In this document: piece by piece, positions 24,707-33,869 of the stretch
How positions within the stretch are numbered: the first letter of the stretch is position 1
Layout of the letters: each line of letters opens with the position of its first letter
NCBI GenBank assembly: GCA_902787125.1
Contig: CADAEX010000001.1
Location: 1 to 34,233, forward strand
DNA length: 34,233 nt
Source of the DNA: an uncultured Spirochaetaceae bacterium
GTDB lineage: Bacteria > Spirochaetota > Spirochaetia > CADAEX01
Reading direction: 5' to 3'
The notes under the pieces: generated by a model
Seen by the model: only the letters and a program-made list of their open reading frames with translations
What the model was told of the DNA's origin: nothing
The model's database searches: none
Program-made: the position numbers and the translations under genes

Positions 24707-24736
24707 ACTACCTCCGGAAAAGGGGTGGAGATGGTA

Positions 24737-24816
24737 CGGTTTTCCTACGCCAGCATTACCTGGATCAGGTCAAAGGGTATAATCTCAGAGATTCCTAGGA
24801 ATCCCACCCCAATTTA
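24737..24816 (-). ncRNA. TPP riboswitch (THI element)
   Basis: Minus strand reads GGGGUG-GGAUUCCUAGGAAUCU-CUGAGA-UUAUACCCUUUGACCUGAUCCAGGUAAUGCUGGCGUAGGAAA, containing the conserved CUGAGA and ACCUGAU...UAAUGC...GCGUAGG elements. Boundaries are approximate. Confidence 0.95.
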
Positions 24817-24819
24817 TAA

Positions 24820-24854
24820 ATAAAAAATTAAGGCTGCATTGCTGCAGCCTTTTT
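24820..24854 (-). terminator. Terminator-like hairpin after tRNA-Asn
   Basis: Stem AAGGCTGCA / TGCAGCCTT (24830-24851) with a 4-nt loop, followed by AATTTTTTATTT on the minus strand. Confidence 0.7.
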
Positions 24855-24927
24855 CTCCCCCGGACAGACTCGAACTGCCGACCTAGTGGTTAACAGCCAC
24901 CCGCTCTACCGGCTGAGCTACAGGGGA
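24855..24927 (-). tRNA. tRNA-Asn (GTT)
   Basis: TCCCCTGTAGCTCAGCCGGTAGAGCGGGTGGCT-GTT-AACCACTAGGTCGGCAGTTCGAGTCTGTCCGGGGGAG folds as a 73-nt cloverleaf; CCA is not encoded. Confidence 0.97.
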
Positions 24928-30117: not shown

Positions 30118-31677
30118 ATGAACTATTTTGACCTGACGGAAACAGAAGCCTACAGAAAGCTGTGCGCCTATTACAAGGGAAAACCGGAGCTCAAGAAGCT
30201 CCTTACTCCCGAAGCAGTTGAGAAATATGTTGCCCCTGCGGGGAAAAACATTTCCTTCAGCTATGCTGGAAAAGGGATGACCCCTGAGCTTGTGGAGCTC
30301 TGCCAGAGCCTTGCAGACGAGCAGGAGTGCATAGCAAAATACCGGGATCTCCTTGCCGGCGGCATAGCCAATAAAGGGGAGAACCGGGCAGTGATGCACC
30401 ATCTGTGCCGCGGGACTTCCGGTCTGCCTGTCTCTGATGAATCAGCTGCCTGCGGCAAGTTCTATGCCCGGGAGAAGGAAAAGTTCTTTGCCTTTTCTGA
30501 CCAGATCCGTTCCGGCGCTTTAAGAGGCAGCACCGGCAAAAAGTTTGATACAGTGGTGCAGATAGGCATAGGCGGCTCAGGGCTCGGTCCCAAGGCTGTC
30601 TACCAGGGGCTCCTTGGCTACTGCCGGGCAGAGAAGGTATCGCCGATACTCAGGGCCGAGTTCATATCCAACATAGACCCGGATGAGCCTGTCTCTGTCC
30701 TTTCAGGAATAAACCCGGAGACTGCACTGTTCATTCTTGTGACCAAGAGCGGCACTACCCTTGAGACCCTTACCAACTATGCATTTGTAGAAGAATATTT
30801 ACGTAAGAACTGCCCGGCAGTGGATGTGAGAAAGCAGACAGCAGTTGTGACTGCCTCAGGCTCTCCGCTGGATGACGGGAAGCAGTTCCTGGCTTCATTC
30901 CACATTGACGATTCTGTGGGTGGCCGTTTCTCATCCACCAGCGCCTGTGCCGGTGTTCTTATTTCTGCAGCTTTCGGAAAGGATATCTTCAGCCGGTTCC
31001 TGTCCGGTGCCCACAGCAGCGATATCCTGGCTTTGAACGGGAAGGTGGGGGAGAACGGGGCTCTTATGGATGCCCTCCTTGAGGTGATAGATGTCAATAT
31101 CAGGAATATCCCGGTGGAGGCTGTGATTCCATATTCTGCTTCCCTGGCCCCCTTTGTGCTCCACCTGCAGCAGCTTTATATGGAGAGCAACGGTAAACCG
31201 GCAAGATATGCCACCTGTCCTGTGATATTTGCCTCGGTGGGAACCGACTGCCAGCACTCCTTCTTCCAGCAGCTTCATCAGGGAAAGGTTGAGATGCCGG
31301 TTGAGTTCATAGGCTTTAAGCACAGTCAGTACAGAACTGATGTACAGTACAGAGGCTCAAGCTCGCAGGCAAAGCTGGATGCGAACCTGGCTGCCCAGAT
31401 CACAGCATTTGCAGACGGCCGCTCCAGCTCTGATATCAATAAATGCATCCCGGGGAACAGGGCCACCTCTCTGCTCTTCGGAGACAGGCTTACACCTGAG
31501 AATTTAGGAGCTCTCTTTGCCCATTTCGAGAACAAGGTGATGTTCCAGGGATTCCTGTGGAATATAAACTCCTACGACCAGGAAGGGGTGCGGCTGGGCA
31601 AGGACCTGGCAAAAGAAGCCCTTGAATTTGAGAAAAACGATACCCCAGTTCTCAAAAGCTATTATTCTTTCTTCTGA
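30118..31677 (+). CDS. pgi: Glucose-6-phosphate isomerase
   Basis: GIGGSGLGP, TKSGTTLET, VGGRFS, QQLYMESNGK, QHSFFQ and DQEGVRLGK. Confidence 0.96.
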   Translation: MNYFDLTETEAYRKLCAYYKGKPELKKLLTPEAVEKYVAPAGKNISFSYAGKGMTPELVELCQSLADEQECIAKYRDLLAGGIANKGENRAVMHHLCRGTSGLPVSDESAACGKFYAREKEKFFAFSDQIRSGALRGSTGKKFDTVVQIGIGGSGLGPKAVYQGLLGYCRAEKVSPILRAEFISNIDPDEPVSVLSGINPETALFILVTKSGTTLETLTNYAFVEEYLRKNCPAVDVRKQTAVVTASGSPLDDGKQFLASFHIDDSVGGRFSSTSACAGVLISAAFGKDIFSRFLSGAHSSDILALNGKVGENGALMDALLEVIDVNIRNIPVEAVIPYSASLAPFVLHLQQLYMESNGKPARYATCPVIFASVGTDCQHSFFQQLHQGKVEMPVEFIGFKHSQYRTDVQYRGSSSQAKLDANLAAQITAFADGRSSSDINKCIPGNRATSLLFGDRLTPENLGALFAHFENKVMFQGFLWNINSYDQEGVRLGKDLAKEALEFEKNDTPVLKSYYSFF

Positions 31678-31690
31678 TTAAAATTGTTTC

Positions 31691-31737
31691 AAAAAAAATC
31701 CTGCCGGCTTCAGACGGGGAAAAGGTGCCGGCAGGAT
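31691..31737 (-). terminator. Rho-independent terminator, minus-strand orientation
   Basis: ATCCTGCCGGC / GCCGGCAGGAT (31698-31737), with an A8 run at 31691-31698 that is the U-tract on the minus strand. Confidence 0.8.
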
Positions 31738-31780
31738 ACACATAAAAGGAGGTTTATGAAAAGATTTCACATCTTTCATA
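31691..31780 (-). ncRNA. Candidate small RNA 1 (anti-SD motifs, intrinsic terminator)
   Basis: 5' hairpin (31751-31784), unpaired CCUCCUUUU region, and an 11-bp terminator stem whose loop carries CCUUUUCCCC, followed by a U-run. Preceded by TTTGTAACT-N15-GGTTT. The 5' end is estimated. Confidence 0.5.
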
Positions 31781-31784
31781 AACC

Positions 31785-31813
31785 AAACCGTCCAGTGAAT
31801 TTCAAGTTACAAA
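31785..31813 (-). promoter_or_regulatory. Candidate ECF-sigma-type promoter, copy 1
   Basis: TTTGTAACT-N15-GGTTT; same motif and spacing as copy 2. Confidence 0.45.
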
Positions 31814-31853
31814 TTTTTGATTAATTTTTCTGAATGTCTTTCAGATTTCAGGC

Positions 31854-31894
31854 AAAAAGAAACCTGCTGGAAAAGGAGAGAGAACCAGCAGGTT
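31854..31894 (-). terminator. Rho-independent terminator, minus-strand orientation
   Basis: Perfect 10-bp stem 31861-31870 / 31885-31894 followed by UCUUUUU on the minus strand. Confidence 0.8.
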
Positions 31895-31944
31895 AACATT
31901 GAATTATTTGGAAGAAAACTTTTTAGTTTTTTATCGCTTTGTAC
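31854..31944 (-). ncRNA. Candidate small RNA 2 (alternatively the cdd 3' UTR)
   Basis: Ends in the 10-bp stem AACCTGCTGG/CCAGCAGGTT with loop UUCUCUCUCCUUUU and a U-rich tail. Preceded by TTTGTAACT-N15-TGTTT. The 5' end is estimated. Confidence 0.42.
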
Positions 31945-31949
31945 TTAGT

Positions 31950-31978
31950 AAACAACTCTCCCTTATGACAGTTACAAA
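31950..31978 (-). promoter_or_regulatory. Candidate ECF-sigma-type promoter, copy 2
   Basis: TTTGTAACT-N15-TGTTT immediately after the cdd stop. Confidence 0.45.
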
Positions 31979-31983
31979 ATAAT

Positions 31984-32388
31984 TCAATTTTTTTTCAGAT
32001 CATGCAGGGAATCCATAGGATAGAGCTCAGAAACAGGAATCTCAACAGCTTTACCTTTGCTTCCGCAGCATATAACTGCAGCATCTGGGGCAGAGAACTC
32101 TGTTATTACCTGCCGGCAGGCTCCGCAGGGAGGAAGTGGATCTGCAGAATCTGGCGAATAGATTGCCACAGCTTTTATCGACTTCATTCCCATGGCCACT
32201 GCATGGGCAATTGCATTCCGCTCGGCACAGATTGTAAGGCCGTAGGAGCGGTTCTCCACATTCACCCCGGTGTAGATTGTCCCGTCGTCTGCAAGCACAG
32301 CAGCTCCCACCCGGAACTTTGAGTAAGGGGCATAGGCTCTGAGAGCGGCATTGGATGCCTCTGATATCAGTTTTTCCTTGTCTTTCAT
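31984..32388 (-). CDS. cdd: Cytidine deaminase
   Basis: AYAPYSKFRVGAA, NVEN, CAERNA and PCGACRQ. Start moved to ATG 32388 (SD AAGGA, 7-nt spacer). Confidence 0.96.
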   Translation of the reverse strand: MKDKEKLISEASNAALRAYAPYSKFRVGAAVLADDGTIYTGVNVENRSYGLTICAERNAIAHAVAMGMKSIKAVAIYSPDSADPLPPCGACRQVITEFSAPDAAVICCGSKGKAVEIPVSELYPMDSLHDLKKN

Positions 32389-32402
32389 ATTATTGTCCTT
32401 CA

Positions 32403-32431
32403 TTGACAGTATATTATCAGTATTATAAAAT
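32403..32431 (+). promoter_or_regulatory. Sigma70 promoter, leaderless geometry
   Basis: TTGACA-N17-TAAAAT-N6-ATG(32438); no SD present. Confidence 0.72.
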
Positions 32432-32437
32432 TGATAC

Positions 32438-33136
32438 ATGGAAAAGAAATTTTTTCTTTTTATTCCTCTATTTTTTCTCCTCTTTTCTTTTCTTTTTCCC
32501 ATAAAAGGGGGATCTGACCGGTATTTTATCCAATCGGCCCATGGTACAAAGACTGGGCCCCGGGTTCCTTCTTCCTATTCTGTCCAGCAGCCTGCCGGAA
32601 TGGTCATGACATGCAATTATTCCAATAAAGACTTTATTGCCTCTGGATTTCTGGATGGAACTCTTCTTGTCGACGGCAGACCTCTTGAGATCATGACTCA
32701 GAGTAAATATAAGACAATTTATGCAGTTGCCGCCTCGGATGATGGTGAATATCTTGCTGCTATAGCCGGCTTATATCCAAGGAGCCTCTATGTGTATCAG
32801 AAGAAGCAGGAGGGCTGGAATCTGTCCCGCAGGATCAACCTTGCAGATGATGTGCGGCGCACCCCTTTTCTTGCATTCTCGGGCAATATACTGCTTTTTG
32901 AGGACACAGCAGGGCTTTCGGTGCTGAATATGACCACATTCAATCTTTATTCCATGTCATTCAGCGGAACTCTGAAGGATGTGGCTTTTGACCCTGAGCA
33001 GGAGTATGTCTGGGTTGTATCGGCTGATGAGACAGGCGACCATATCCGCATTTTCCTTTACAACGGCAGTCTGGTTGCTTCGGCCCTGTATGACGGCAGG
33101 GAAGACATCAGGAATTTAAGGGTGACGGAGCAGTGA
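32438..33136 (+). CDS. Exported or membrane-anchored hypothetical protein, partial WD40/beta-propeller-like
   Basis: N-terminal hydrophobic segment; IASGFLDGTL, IYAVAASDDGEYLAAI and KDVAFDP resemble propeller blades. Confidence 0.65.
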   Translation: MEKKFFLFIPLFFLLFSFLFPIKGGSDRYFIQSAHGTKTGPRVPSSYSVQQPAGMVMTCNYSNKDFIASGFLDGTLLVDGRPLEIMTQSKYKTIYAVAASDDGEYLAAIAGLYPRSLYVYQKKQEGWNLSRRINLADDVRRTPFLAFSGNILLFEDTAGLSVLNMTTFNLYSMSFSGTLKDVAFDPEQEYVWVVSADETGDHIRIFLYNGSLVASALYDGREDIRNLRVTEQ

Positions 33137-33137
33137 T

Positions 33138-33869
33138 ATGAGAAATCTGATCCTTATCTTCTGTTTTATTATGACCGTATCCTTATTGACCGCCTTTGAT
33201 TCTCCGGCTCCTGACGGCAGGATGACTGCTTCTTTCGGAGCAGCGGTCAAGGGAGAGCTCAATACGGGAATAGATATCCGGACCCGGGATGTCATTGCCT
33301 CGGAAGACGGCGAGGTTCTCTACTATAGCTCCGATCTCATCGCCTTAGCCCATGATGATTCCATGCTTACTATCTATTCAGGTGTTGCTGTATCGGAGGC
33401 TCTGGCAAGGAATGTCCATGTGGAGCGGGGTCAGCTTCTTGGTAAGACAAAAGAAGGAGTCCTCCATTTTGAAGTCTATGACCTGGAGATGGAACGGTAT
33501 ATCAATCCGCTCCTTATGACTGAAAAAATTAAGAAATCTGAACTTCCGCAGGTCAAGGACCTTTCCTATGACTCTAAGACCGGTATGCTGAGTGTATATA
33601 TGTCTGATAAGGAGCTTATGGGACTTTGCAAGGTGCAGATTTCTGTGGATGGACAGGTGGTGAGCACTCTTGGATTCAGGACAATTCAGCGTAGGGGAGA
33701 GACTCTGGCACTGGAGCGGGAGGGCTTTGAATATAGAGTGCTGTATGGCCGGCAGGGGGCATTTACATTCCCCGATATTAAGCTTAAGCCCGGTGAAAAC
33801 AGTGTTGATGTGATTGTCACAGATTTTTATGGAAAAAAAGTTGTATTCCATGGTAGGATAACAGTATGA
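33138..33869 (+). CDS. M23/LytM family protein with degenerate active site
   Basis: Signal peptide; TASFG, NTGIDI, ASEDGEV, VERGQLLG, LHFEV and INPL motifs. Confidence 0.75.
   Translation: MRNLILIFCFIMTVSLLTAFDSPAPDGRMTASFGAAVKGELNTGIDIRTRDVIASEDGEVLYYSSDLIALAHDDSMLTIYSGVAVSEALARNVHVERGQLLGKTKEGVLHFEVYDLEMERYINPLLMTEKIKKSELPQVKDLSYDSKTGMLSVYMSDKELMGLCKVQISVDGQVVSTLGFRTIQRRGETLALEREGFEYRVLYGRQGAFTFPDIKLKPGENSVDVIVTDFYGKKVVFHGRITV

Follow-up and report, generated by a model that had tools for sequence, protein, structure and literature searches.

The 34,233-nucleotide stretch of DNA considered here (the window) is contig C1 of an uncultured Spirochaetaceae bacterium, whose genome (labelled G000) comprises 1.46 Mb in 193 contigs at 48% G+C. 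Two convergent genes in the window, pgi and cdd, both identified with confirmation from Pfam, are separated by a 306-bp gap that poses a question: what are two GC-rich hairpins with U-runs, facing the same way and each preceded by the same short motif, doing behind a convergent gene pair? We consider it likely that the gap holds two independent small RNA (sRNA) genes of ~90 nucleotides (nt), here called unit A and unit B, which are transcribed by an extracytoplasmic function (ECF) sigma factor and end at their own terminators, with unit B belonging to an anti-Shine-Dalgarno RNA family found across the class Spirochaetia and unit A being specific to the genus. Read along the minus strand, the gap runs from the cdd stop codon through the predicted unit A promoter, unit A, a spacer and the predicted unit B promoter to unit B, with the following features:

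30118..31677, plus strand: pgi, glucose-6-phosphate isomerase (Pfam PGI, 1.2e-85)
31984..32502, minus strand: cdd, cytidine deaminase (Pfam dCMP_cyt_deam_1, 1.5e-22, and the list of open reading frames)
31950..31978, minus strand: putative unit A promoter, with TTTGTAACT (−35 element, TGTAAC at 31976-31971), a 16-nt spacer after GTAAC and TGTTT (−10 element, 31954-31950)
31854..31949, minus strand: candidate unit A RNA, ~90 nt, predicted 5' end near 31943
31930-31915, minus strand: small hairpin in the A-rich 5' part of unit A, from folding
31894-31885/31870-31861, minus strand: unit A terminator stem, a perfect 10-bp inverted repeat (I6)
31884-31871, minus strand: unit A terminator loop UUCUCUCUCCUUUU, 14 nt
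31860-31854, minus strand: unit A U-run, read from the sequence
31814..31853, minus strand: spacer between the unit A terminator and the unit B promoter, 40 nt, A/T-rich, variable
31785..31813, minus strand: putative unit B promoter, with TTTGTAACT (−35 element, TGTAAC at 31811-31806), a 16-nt spacer and GGTTT (−10 element, 31789-31785)
31691..31784, minus strand: candidate unit B RNA, ~89 nt, predicted 5' end near 31779-31777
31784-31751, minus strand: unit B 5' hairpin, from folding
31753-31744, minus strand: unpaired unit B box ACCUCCUUUU, with flank AUGUGU
31737-31727/31708-31698, minus strand: unit B terminator stem, a perfect 11-bp inverted repeat (I4, 31698-31708/31727-31737)
31698-31691, minus strand: unit B U-run, eight U

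This layout agrees with the original prediction, made from the letters of the window, that the gap contains two minus-strand units, each with a motif followed by a GC-rich stem, a large pyrimidine loop and a U-run. The 9-mer TTTGTAACT, placed there at both units with the same spacing, is indeed a direct repeat (D3) whose copies lie 165 nt apart. The extended pattern TGTAACT-N15-KGTTT occurs exactly twice in the window (31976-31950 and 31811-31785, both on the minus strand) and has no occurrence in 100 dinucleotide-preserving shuffles of it, and the end of the U-run lies 94-96 nt past the motif in both units. On folding, unit B has a z-score of −6.4 and unit A one of −3.2. A simple terminator scan reported neither terminator because it accepts loops of 3-8 nt only, and a simple promoter scan found no sigma-70-type promoter ahead of either unit.

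Conservation within the genus follows the same boundaries. A BLAST-type search with the whole gap recovered it in five of eight same-genus genomes at 82-88% identity; shorter matches elsewhere (22-51 nt, E 5e-5 to 0.006) were dropped as low-complexity. When the gap is aligned with that of these five relatives (alignment A1), both promoters and both RNA bodies are almost invariant, the unit A motif being kept in all six genomes, while large indels and poor conservation are confined to the spacer at 31814-31853, which is just 23-75% alignable in pairwise comparisons. Unit A is 93-98% identical to the five relatives and unit B 91-94% identical to each; in the same comparisons, cdd and pgi show 54-69% identity at third codon positions and 87-96% at first and second positions. 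This pattern indicates that both units are under selection and that the spacer is free to vary.

The units had also been credited with CU-rich anti-Shine-Dalgarno loops, a claim that stands for unit B in substance but not in position, since its main such element lies in the linker and not in the terminator loop. The terminator loop, ACCUUUUCCCCGUCUGAA, is 18 nt long, pyrimidine-rich and contains the conserved UUUCCCCGUC. The linker, which reads AACCUCCUUUUAUGUGU and is unpaired between the 5' hairpin and the terminator, holds the box ACCUCCUUUU, and it is this box that is the best-conserved CU-rich element of unit B. Neither the 5' hairpin (31784-31751) nor the invariant unpaired box had been noticed in the original prediction.

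A promoter motif shared with an ECF sigma factor gene

The assignment of the units to an alternative sigma factor gains support from a genome-wide scan of the kind proposed with the original prediction. TGTAAC-N16-KGTTT is rare, with five exact copies in the 1.46-Mb genome; two of these are the units, and a third, which is conserved, lies directly upstream of an ECF sigma/anti-sigma operon (C61:6447-6421, 6 nt upstream of the sigma ATG at C61:6414). The product of the sigma gene (PF08281, 59 bits) has 174 amino acids and carries Sigma70_r2, Sigma70_r4_2 and Sigma70_ECF domains, and it is the strongest among four region-4_2 matches in G000. Downstream lies a gene for a 180-residue zf-HC2 protein, the usual anti-sigma arrangement. 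In NCBIfam, the sigma factor scores above the cut-off for the general ECF superfamily TIGR02937 only and for no named subfamily.

The promoter of this gene, TGTAACTA-N14-GGTTGTTT with the ATG 5-7 nt further on, is kept upstream of the orthologue in nine of nine genus genomes. Among orthologues from many families of the class, 24 of 24 have GTAAC-N15-19-GTT(GTT) with the ATG 5-8 nt behind it. The motif is common to the units, the sigma operon and all 24 of the listed class matches to the unit B RNA described below, which argues for a shared alternative-sigma promoter. In all nine genus genomes and all 24 class orthologues the sigma ATG follows the −10 element by 5-8 nt with no Shine-Dalgarno (SD) sequence, and the sigma mRNA appears to be leaderless.

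A promoter matrix was trained on 49 promoters of other genomes, 29 before RNA homologues and 20 before sigma orthologues, all of which have TGTAAC, with a 16-nt spacer in 42 and a 17-nt spacer in seven. Its scan of G000 ranked the three predicted promoters as follows:

Unit A promoter: 27.0 bits, rank 1 genome-wide
Sigma promoter: 23.9 bits, rank 2 genome-wide
Unit B promoter, with GGTTTG and not TGTTTA: 14.4 bits, rank 12 genome-wide

At 22 bits or more there are two sites in G000 versus 0.1 in shuffles, and at 18 bits or more five versus 1.2. At the −10 element of unit B, relatives carry TGGTTTA. Both predicted unit promoters have the ECF layout, namely an AAC-containing −35 element, a fixed spacer of ~16-17 nt and a short −10 element.

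Sigma orthologues were found in 133 of 151 sampled Spirochaetia genomes. Each of the 61 genomes with the unit B RNA has a sigma match, and none of the 18 genomes that lack a sigma match has the RNA.

The unit B RNA family in Spirochaetia

Two covariance models describe the distribution of unit B: R2, built from unit B with its promoter left out, and R3, built from 34 diverse members. Unit B itself scores 113 bits in R2 and 93 bits in R3. Among the 20 family genomes, R2 has a single full-length match in each of 16, with all four genera represented, and it matches 43 of 151 class genomes; R3 raises the latter figure to 61 of 151, in 34 of 87 genera. In a phylum-wide sample, R3 matches six of 151 genomes, all six within the same class, and has no match in the ~135 genomes of other classes. 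RNAs of the unit B type are mostly single-copy and always matched at full length. A strict DNA pattern of promoter plus two boxes picks out 13 stretches among 185,579 species' genomes of a species-representative collection, and all 13 have Spirochaet* titles (Spirochaetia, Spirochaetales or Spirochaetes). Just upstream of the RNA, GTAAC-N15-19-GTT is present at 24 of the 24 class matches listed and at nine of ten family matches, and this promoter lies outside the search model.

In a typical member, the 5' hairpin ends in UUUUUCAU, the unpaired stretch after it reads (C/U)(G/A)ACCUCCUUUU and the terminator loop holds a second ACCUCCUUUU; in the window's genus, unit B is without the second box. 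Covariation points to a conserved fold. In an alignment fitted to the model, and so leaning toward the structure, 90.3% of cells are paired compared with 38-54% when partners are slid, and double changes occur in 24 of 24 modelled base pairs, a level reached in none of 500 shuffles.

The original prediction knew of no described family for the units, and Rfam 15 bears this out: it has no family at the units or at the RNA in eight typical loci of other genera. The units have no Rfam match at the gathering threshold. Relaxing the search to E values up to 10 over 31600-32050 gives 16 matches, those at the units being sub-threshold (LhrC at 29 bits, CyaR at 20 bits and two Bacteroides sRNAs at 18-20 bits); identities with CyaR, LhrC or the Bacteroides sRNAs were rejected because such scores are at chance level and below the Rfam threshold. 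By these comparisons of sequence and fold, unit B belongs to a class-wide structured RNA family of Spirochaetia that is absent from Rfam. Two model matches were set aside: an R2 match in G005 (27 bits, E 0.009) looks spurious, having neither promoter nor box, and a second R2/R3 match in L040 (1645-1725, minus strand) is the terminator of a neighbouring gene and no RNA gene.

Unit A is more restricted. Its own model, R1, matches only the window's genus (g1), in seven of 20 family genomes, one of which (G001) has a diverged copy on another contig behind CTGTAACT-N15-TGGTTT. Scores of unit A in the unit B family models are low (24-34 bits; E 1e-3 to 3e-2 in ~56-200 kb) and come mostly from the terminator with its CUCCUUU loop, a loop similar to the ancestral second box. 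The proposal that the units are a sibling pair is favoured by the shared promoter and the CU-rich terminator loop, and it is weakened by the low score of unit A in the unit B model. Unit A is probably a genus-specific diverged duplicate that kept the promoter and the CU-rich loop and lost the 5' hairpin and the linker box.

G011, of the same family, has a second RNA-like gene at an unrelated locus (L162:1501-1625), where TGTAACT-N15-ATGTTT is followed by ~95 nt and a strong 13-bp terminator; it contains UUUUCAUAAUACUCCUUUUU, with a ACUCCUUUUU box. This extra copy suggests that additional family copies arise repeatedly, also outside the window's genus. In G052, a locus ~600 nt from the RNA gene (L078:2143-2307) matches Rfam TD-1 (102 bits) and TD-2 (53 bits) on opposite strands; these motifs are named after Treponema denticola, a hint that G052 may be a Treponema.

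The anti-Shine-Dalgarno box, a proposed circuit and its rivals

The 16S rRNA genes of G011 and of G007, a member of the same genus, end in GGAUCACCUCCUUUCU, and the box ACCUCCUUU(U) equals nine consecutive nucleotides of this 3' (anti-SD) tail. Typical family members have two ACCUCCUUU boxes that match the tail. Before ATG codons in G000, GGAG peaks at −12 to −9, with 48-79 occurrences against a background of ~10, indicating that the organism uses SD pairing and that the box could occlude such sites.

In the circuit that we propose, the main ECF sigma factor (C61, 174 amino acids) would transcribe both units from TGTAAC(C/T)-N16-(T/G)GTTT, with the spacer counted after GTAAC, and each RNA would end at its own intrinsic terminator. 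Release of the sigma factor from its anti-sigma would induce the sigma operon, both RNAs and, in some lineages, an HtrA/DegP-type protease. The RNAs would then pair with SD regions and block translation initiation, the U-run and CAU upstream of the unit B box also fitting the AUG-AAA-A start of exported proteins, and the outcome would be a lower load of envelope proteins. We infer this occlusion of ribosome-binding sites under envelope stress, like the transcription starts, in vivo sigma dependence, base pairing and targets of both RNAs, from sequence.

Predicted targets of unit B offer a lead only. The U-run and CAU that stand shortly ahead of the box belong to the 3' arm of the 5' hairpin. 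Duplex energies were ranked for the unit B seed (31762-31737) against the 955 SD-bearing ATG start regions of one genome, 131 of which are signal-like under a crude signal-peptide rule. The number of signal-like regions among the top 100 was as follows for each seed:

Unit B full seed: 33, with 98 of 855 in the rest (Fisher 1e-7)
Unit B seed without UUUUCAU: 18 (p 0.12)
16S tail as seed: 13
Five shuffled seeds: 8-17

A single perfect target was also sought, and none of the 39 GGAGGT-N1-3-ATG sites in the genome extends the complementarity, save the antisense of the RNA gene itself. We regard as unlikely a more general idea, in which RNAs of this family would recognise the start sites of exported proteins generically, so that one ECF-induced RNA, frequently with another box in the loop of its terminator, could damp translation of much of the secretome at once. 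It arises because a U-run, CAU, 2-3 nt and ACCUCCUUUU together complement a strong SD sequence followed by AUG-AAA-A, and AUG-AAA-A (Met-Lys-Lys) is the usual start of a signal peptide. If true, such a secretome reader would need no individually evolved target sites and would in effect compete, on induction, with the 16S anti-SD tail, its aim being the envelope proteins.

A link to envelope stress, offered as a possibility in the original prediction, has weak hints in its favour. It is favoured by the in silico target bias and by promoter-like sites before HtrA genes, and it is weakened by the patchy occurrence of these sites across the class. In G000, two of the next-best promoter-like sites precede envelope genes. 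The gene for an HtrA/DegP-type protease (C26:12373-10802, minus strand, 500 amino acids, Trypsin_2 and two PDZ domains) has an upstream site of 17.2 bits, in which ATAAC replaces GTAAC; this variant is kept in eight of the eight genus genomes listed. A site of 16.4 bits precedes the gene for an LpoB-type lipoprotein (C92:2613-3268, plus strand, Pfam 7.7e-37). The 2.8-Mb genome G052 has four copies of the strict motif, one before the sigma gene and one before an HtrA homologue that is 39% identical to that of G000 (E 7e-109). Across the class, upstream sites of at least 14 bits occur at five of 30 HtrA homologues and at none of 30 in-gene controls. We rejected HtrA as a universal regulon member, given this patchiness and, as detailed below, an unsuitable spacing in three genera; its membership in the sigma regulon is lineage-dependent at best.

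Ten runs recorded as RNA, labelled as ruminant or other gut metatranscriptomes, hold part of the window. In one of them (X3), a single 480-nt contig spans 31547-32025, unbroken from pgi through both units into cdd; another (X1) has contig pieces at 31521-31714 and 31814-31955. Runs X6 and X7 have no cover over most of the gap, which is uninformative.

Several results count against the proposed circuit. The unit B promoter scores just 14.4 bits and ranks only twelfth, because of its GGTTTG. In the genus, the TGTAAC of the sigma promoter doubles as the last two codons (Cys-Asn, ...CKKCN*) of an upstream open reading frame (ORF), which confounds the genus-level conservation of this −35 element; the −10 element, being intergenic, is not affected, nor are the sigma promoters of other families, where the upstream context differs. 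Co-occurrence of sigma factor and RNA is one-sided, the former being present in 133 of 151 genomes and the latter in just 61, and it is limited by detection and by the non-independence of relatives. Before HtrA in three other genera (g2-g4), TGTAAC lies ~28-30 nt from a conserved TGT(T/A)TGTAT, a distance that does not fit a single ECF promoter. No Hfq Pfam domain was found in G000, which is 95.7% complete. Most of the target bias comes from UUUUCAU, a string contained in the 3' arm of the 5' hairpin; box-NN-CAU implies a GGAG at −8, closer than the genomic norm of −10/−11; and the unit A loop, used as a seed, gives 14 signal-like regions in the top 100 and no target bias. The ten RNA runs exist only as contigs, and the four compared with the window are Logan contigs of depth ~3-4, unstranded, with unreadable ends and possible DNA carry-over.

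Might the RNAs be real and ECF-driven, yet act as mimics of the 16S 3' tail, either by competing generally for SD sequences or by titrating a protein or nuclease that recognises the tail? The nine-nucleotide identity of the box with the 16S 3' end would be expected of a mimic. The box is also invariant family-wide where its flanks differ between genera, most members have two boxes, one of them in the terminator loop, and no single extended target site was found in G000. Against this, where sRNAs with CU-rich or anti-SD seeds have been studied well, each acts on its own specific set of mRNAs, as in the available part of the work on csRNAs (PMC3091779). In the window's genus, unit B lost the second box, yet its AUGUGU flank is invariant in six genomes, which suggests a specific partner, and the full seed, unlike the 16S tail, prefers signal-peptide-like start regions. 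We judge a mimic decidedly unlikely.

A second alternative dispenses with RNA genes altogether and takes the hairpins as terminators or processing sites of the cdd 3' untranslated region (UTR), with that of unit B serving pgi from the other side; a function in the UTR would then account for the conserved sequence. The genes do lie close. The cdd stop codon is 8 nt ahead of the unit A −35 element, so that unit A begins 8 nt past it, and the pgi stop is 14 nt from the unit B U-run (an A-run on the plus strand). As pgi has no terminator of its own and the unit B hairpin is the sole terminator-like structure behind it, the hairpin probably ends pgi transcripts too and may work in both directions. 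In G011 the homologous RNA is likewise convergent to a gene with a similar 3' sequence, but that gene has a separate hairpin. The X3 contig, continuous from pgi into cdd, could also be read as a UTR, but contigs do not demonstrate single transcripts. A UTR, moreover, has no need for two same-direction terminators or for a promoter-like element that is kept against a neutral identity of 54-69%. Both units share their fixed-spacing bipartite motif with an autoregulated sigma gene, promoter and RNA stay together in unit B homologues across 34 genera, and the second RNA-like gene of G011 has the same promoter at an unrelated locus. We consider a UTR origin very unlikely, and two separate RNA genes remain the better account of the gap.

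That the motif is instead the site of another regulator, be it a repressor, an activator or a different sigma factor, is highly improbable. Sharing of the motif is the sole ground for sigma dependence, and another ECF-type gene of G000 also passes the Pfam cut-off (C5, 46.9 bits), with two further matches that are weaker. The motif nevertheless has an ECF layout, with AAC in the −35 element, a 16-nt spacer and a short −10 element; the sigma ATG lies 5-8 nt after it in 33 of 33 orthologues, fitting an autoregulated leaderless mRNA; and motif and sigma gene also go together in lineages that have just one ECF match, such as G037 (one candidate).

It is hardly credible that one unit encodes a small protein, whether a 33-residue sense ORF (31779-31678), whose ATG lies 5 nt past the −10 element in the same geometry as the sigma ATG and would be leaderless, or a 22-residue antisense ORF (31756-31824), whose perfect AAGGAGGT before the ATG is strong because it is the complement of the box: no reading frame on either strand is conserved in 15 family members of unit B, with the sense ORF absent in three and unrelated in sequence and length in the rest, the antisense ORFs ranging from 0 to 36 residues with no conserved sequence, a 1-nt deletion in the 5' hairpin loop shifting the frame in the genus member G006, and the hairpin arms changing by compensatory pairs. 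Coding readings of either strand were rejected on these grounds, and the absence of a kept frame together with the 1-nt indel argues that the units are non-coding.

Known systems and neighbouring features

Stress-induced sRNAs of other bacteria offer points of comparison for the proposed pair of RNA genes, and in function the nearest are the sigma-E-dependent sRNAs of enterobacteria (MicA, RybB, MicL) and the CiaR-dependent csRNAs of streptococci. The degP/htrA gene is classically in the sigma-E regulon, alongside the autoregulated sigma operon. MicA, RybB and MicL are small RNAs with ECF-sigma promoters that repress translation of abundant envelope proteins, according to the available parts of the reports on them (PMC1804206, PMC1851643, PMC4102768). 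The units resemble these sRNAs in size, within the ~80-100-nt range, and in their ECF-type promoters shared with the sigma operon. They differ in having no Rfam match to these families even at E values up to 10, in belonging to another phylum, in carrying a generic anti-SD box where MicA, RybB and MicL have target-specific 5' seeds, and in a genome where no Hfq was found.

The CiaR regulon of streptococci also includes htrA. In the available part of the paper describing streptococcal csRNAs, two stem-loops flank an unpaired region with an anti-SD sequence and CAU, an anti-AUG (PMC3091779). Unit B and typical family members have a similar layout, the 5' hairpin and the terminator standing on either side of an unpaired ACCUCCUUU box, and several sibling copies per genome and an envelope-related regulon are likewise csRNA features. 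Unlike the csRNAs, which depend on the response regulator CiaR, the units have an ECF-type promoter; CAU, which the csRNAs have in the unpaired stretch, is here part of the 5' hairpin arm, and most members have a further box in the loop of the terminator. No csRNA is among the 16 Rfam matches at E up to 10 over 31600-32050. Membership in the sigma-E sRNA or csRNA families fails on homology, and for the csRNAs on the regulator as well.

LhrC and RsaE/RoxS have repeated pyrimidine-rich motifs in loops and linkers, the terminator loop included, that pair with SD regions; they have other regulators and occur in another phylum (Firmicutes). LhrC is the best Rfam match to unit A, far below threshold and through a terminator with a CUCCCUUUU-like loop. 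Unit A was rejected as an LhrC (RF00616) since it scores 29.4 bits against a gathering threshold of 110 and aligns in its terminator part alone.

Among promoters, those of sigma-X and sigma-W in Bacillus subtilis (TGTAAC/TGAAAC-N16-17-CGxx, with an autoregulated sigma operon) are close in design. The spirochaete motif is like them in having AAC in the −35 hexamer, 16-17 nt of spacer and a short −10 element, and in the apparent autoregulation of the sigma operon. It differs in its −10 element, (T)TGTTT(A) and not CGTx/CGAC, and the spirochaete sigma mRNA appears leaderless and its product falls in no named NCBIfam subfamily.

The regulatory RNAs of spirochaetes outside Borrelia are almost uncharted. 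For Treponema denticola, the available part of a 2021 review lists only 11 RNAs of microRNA (miRNA) size (PMC8551640), and no publication on an ECF-dependent sRNA in spirochaetes was found in open-access full text. The present analysis defines a promoter consensus for an ECF sigma factor that most sampled Spirochaetia conserve (133 of 151 genomes), and it provides a family outside Rfam, found in 34 of the 87 genera sampled, whose covariance model is ready to be curated. The finding would add to the class of stress-sigma sRNAs, give access to RNA-based regulation and to an ECF regulon in a phylum that has been little studied, supply a testable link between envelope-stress sensing and translational control, and raise the testable idea of an anti-RBS RNA directed at the secretome in general. 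If true, three distant lineages would pair an envelope-stress regulator with small anti-SD RNAs, the regulator being the CiaR two-component system in streptococci and an ECF sigma factor in enterobacteria and, as proposed here, in spirochaetes; such convergence would be of general interest.

Other features of the window are minor. A 15-nt inverted repeat (I1, 31895-31909/31977-31991, 93% complementary) would pair the cdd stop region with the sequence just ahead of the unit A terminator and could form solely in a cdd read-through transcript; this long-range pairing was dropped because its arms have no covariation by eye in alignment A1. Divergent from cdd are two adjoining plus-strand ORFs of 232 (32438-33136) and 243 amino acids (33138-33869), neither with a Pfam match at E 0.001 or better. 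Further away, a tRNA gene lies at 24855-24927 on the minus strand, and a TPP riboswitch, barely over threshold at 55.8 bits, lies at 24725-24821 on the same strand. The riboswitch is followed by an ORF of 341 amino acids whose start, MKKILVSVLCLICAASAFAG, is lipoprotein-like, and which could encode a thiamine-binding protein.

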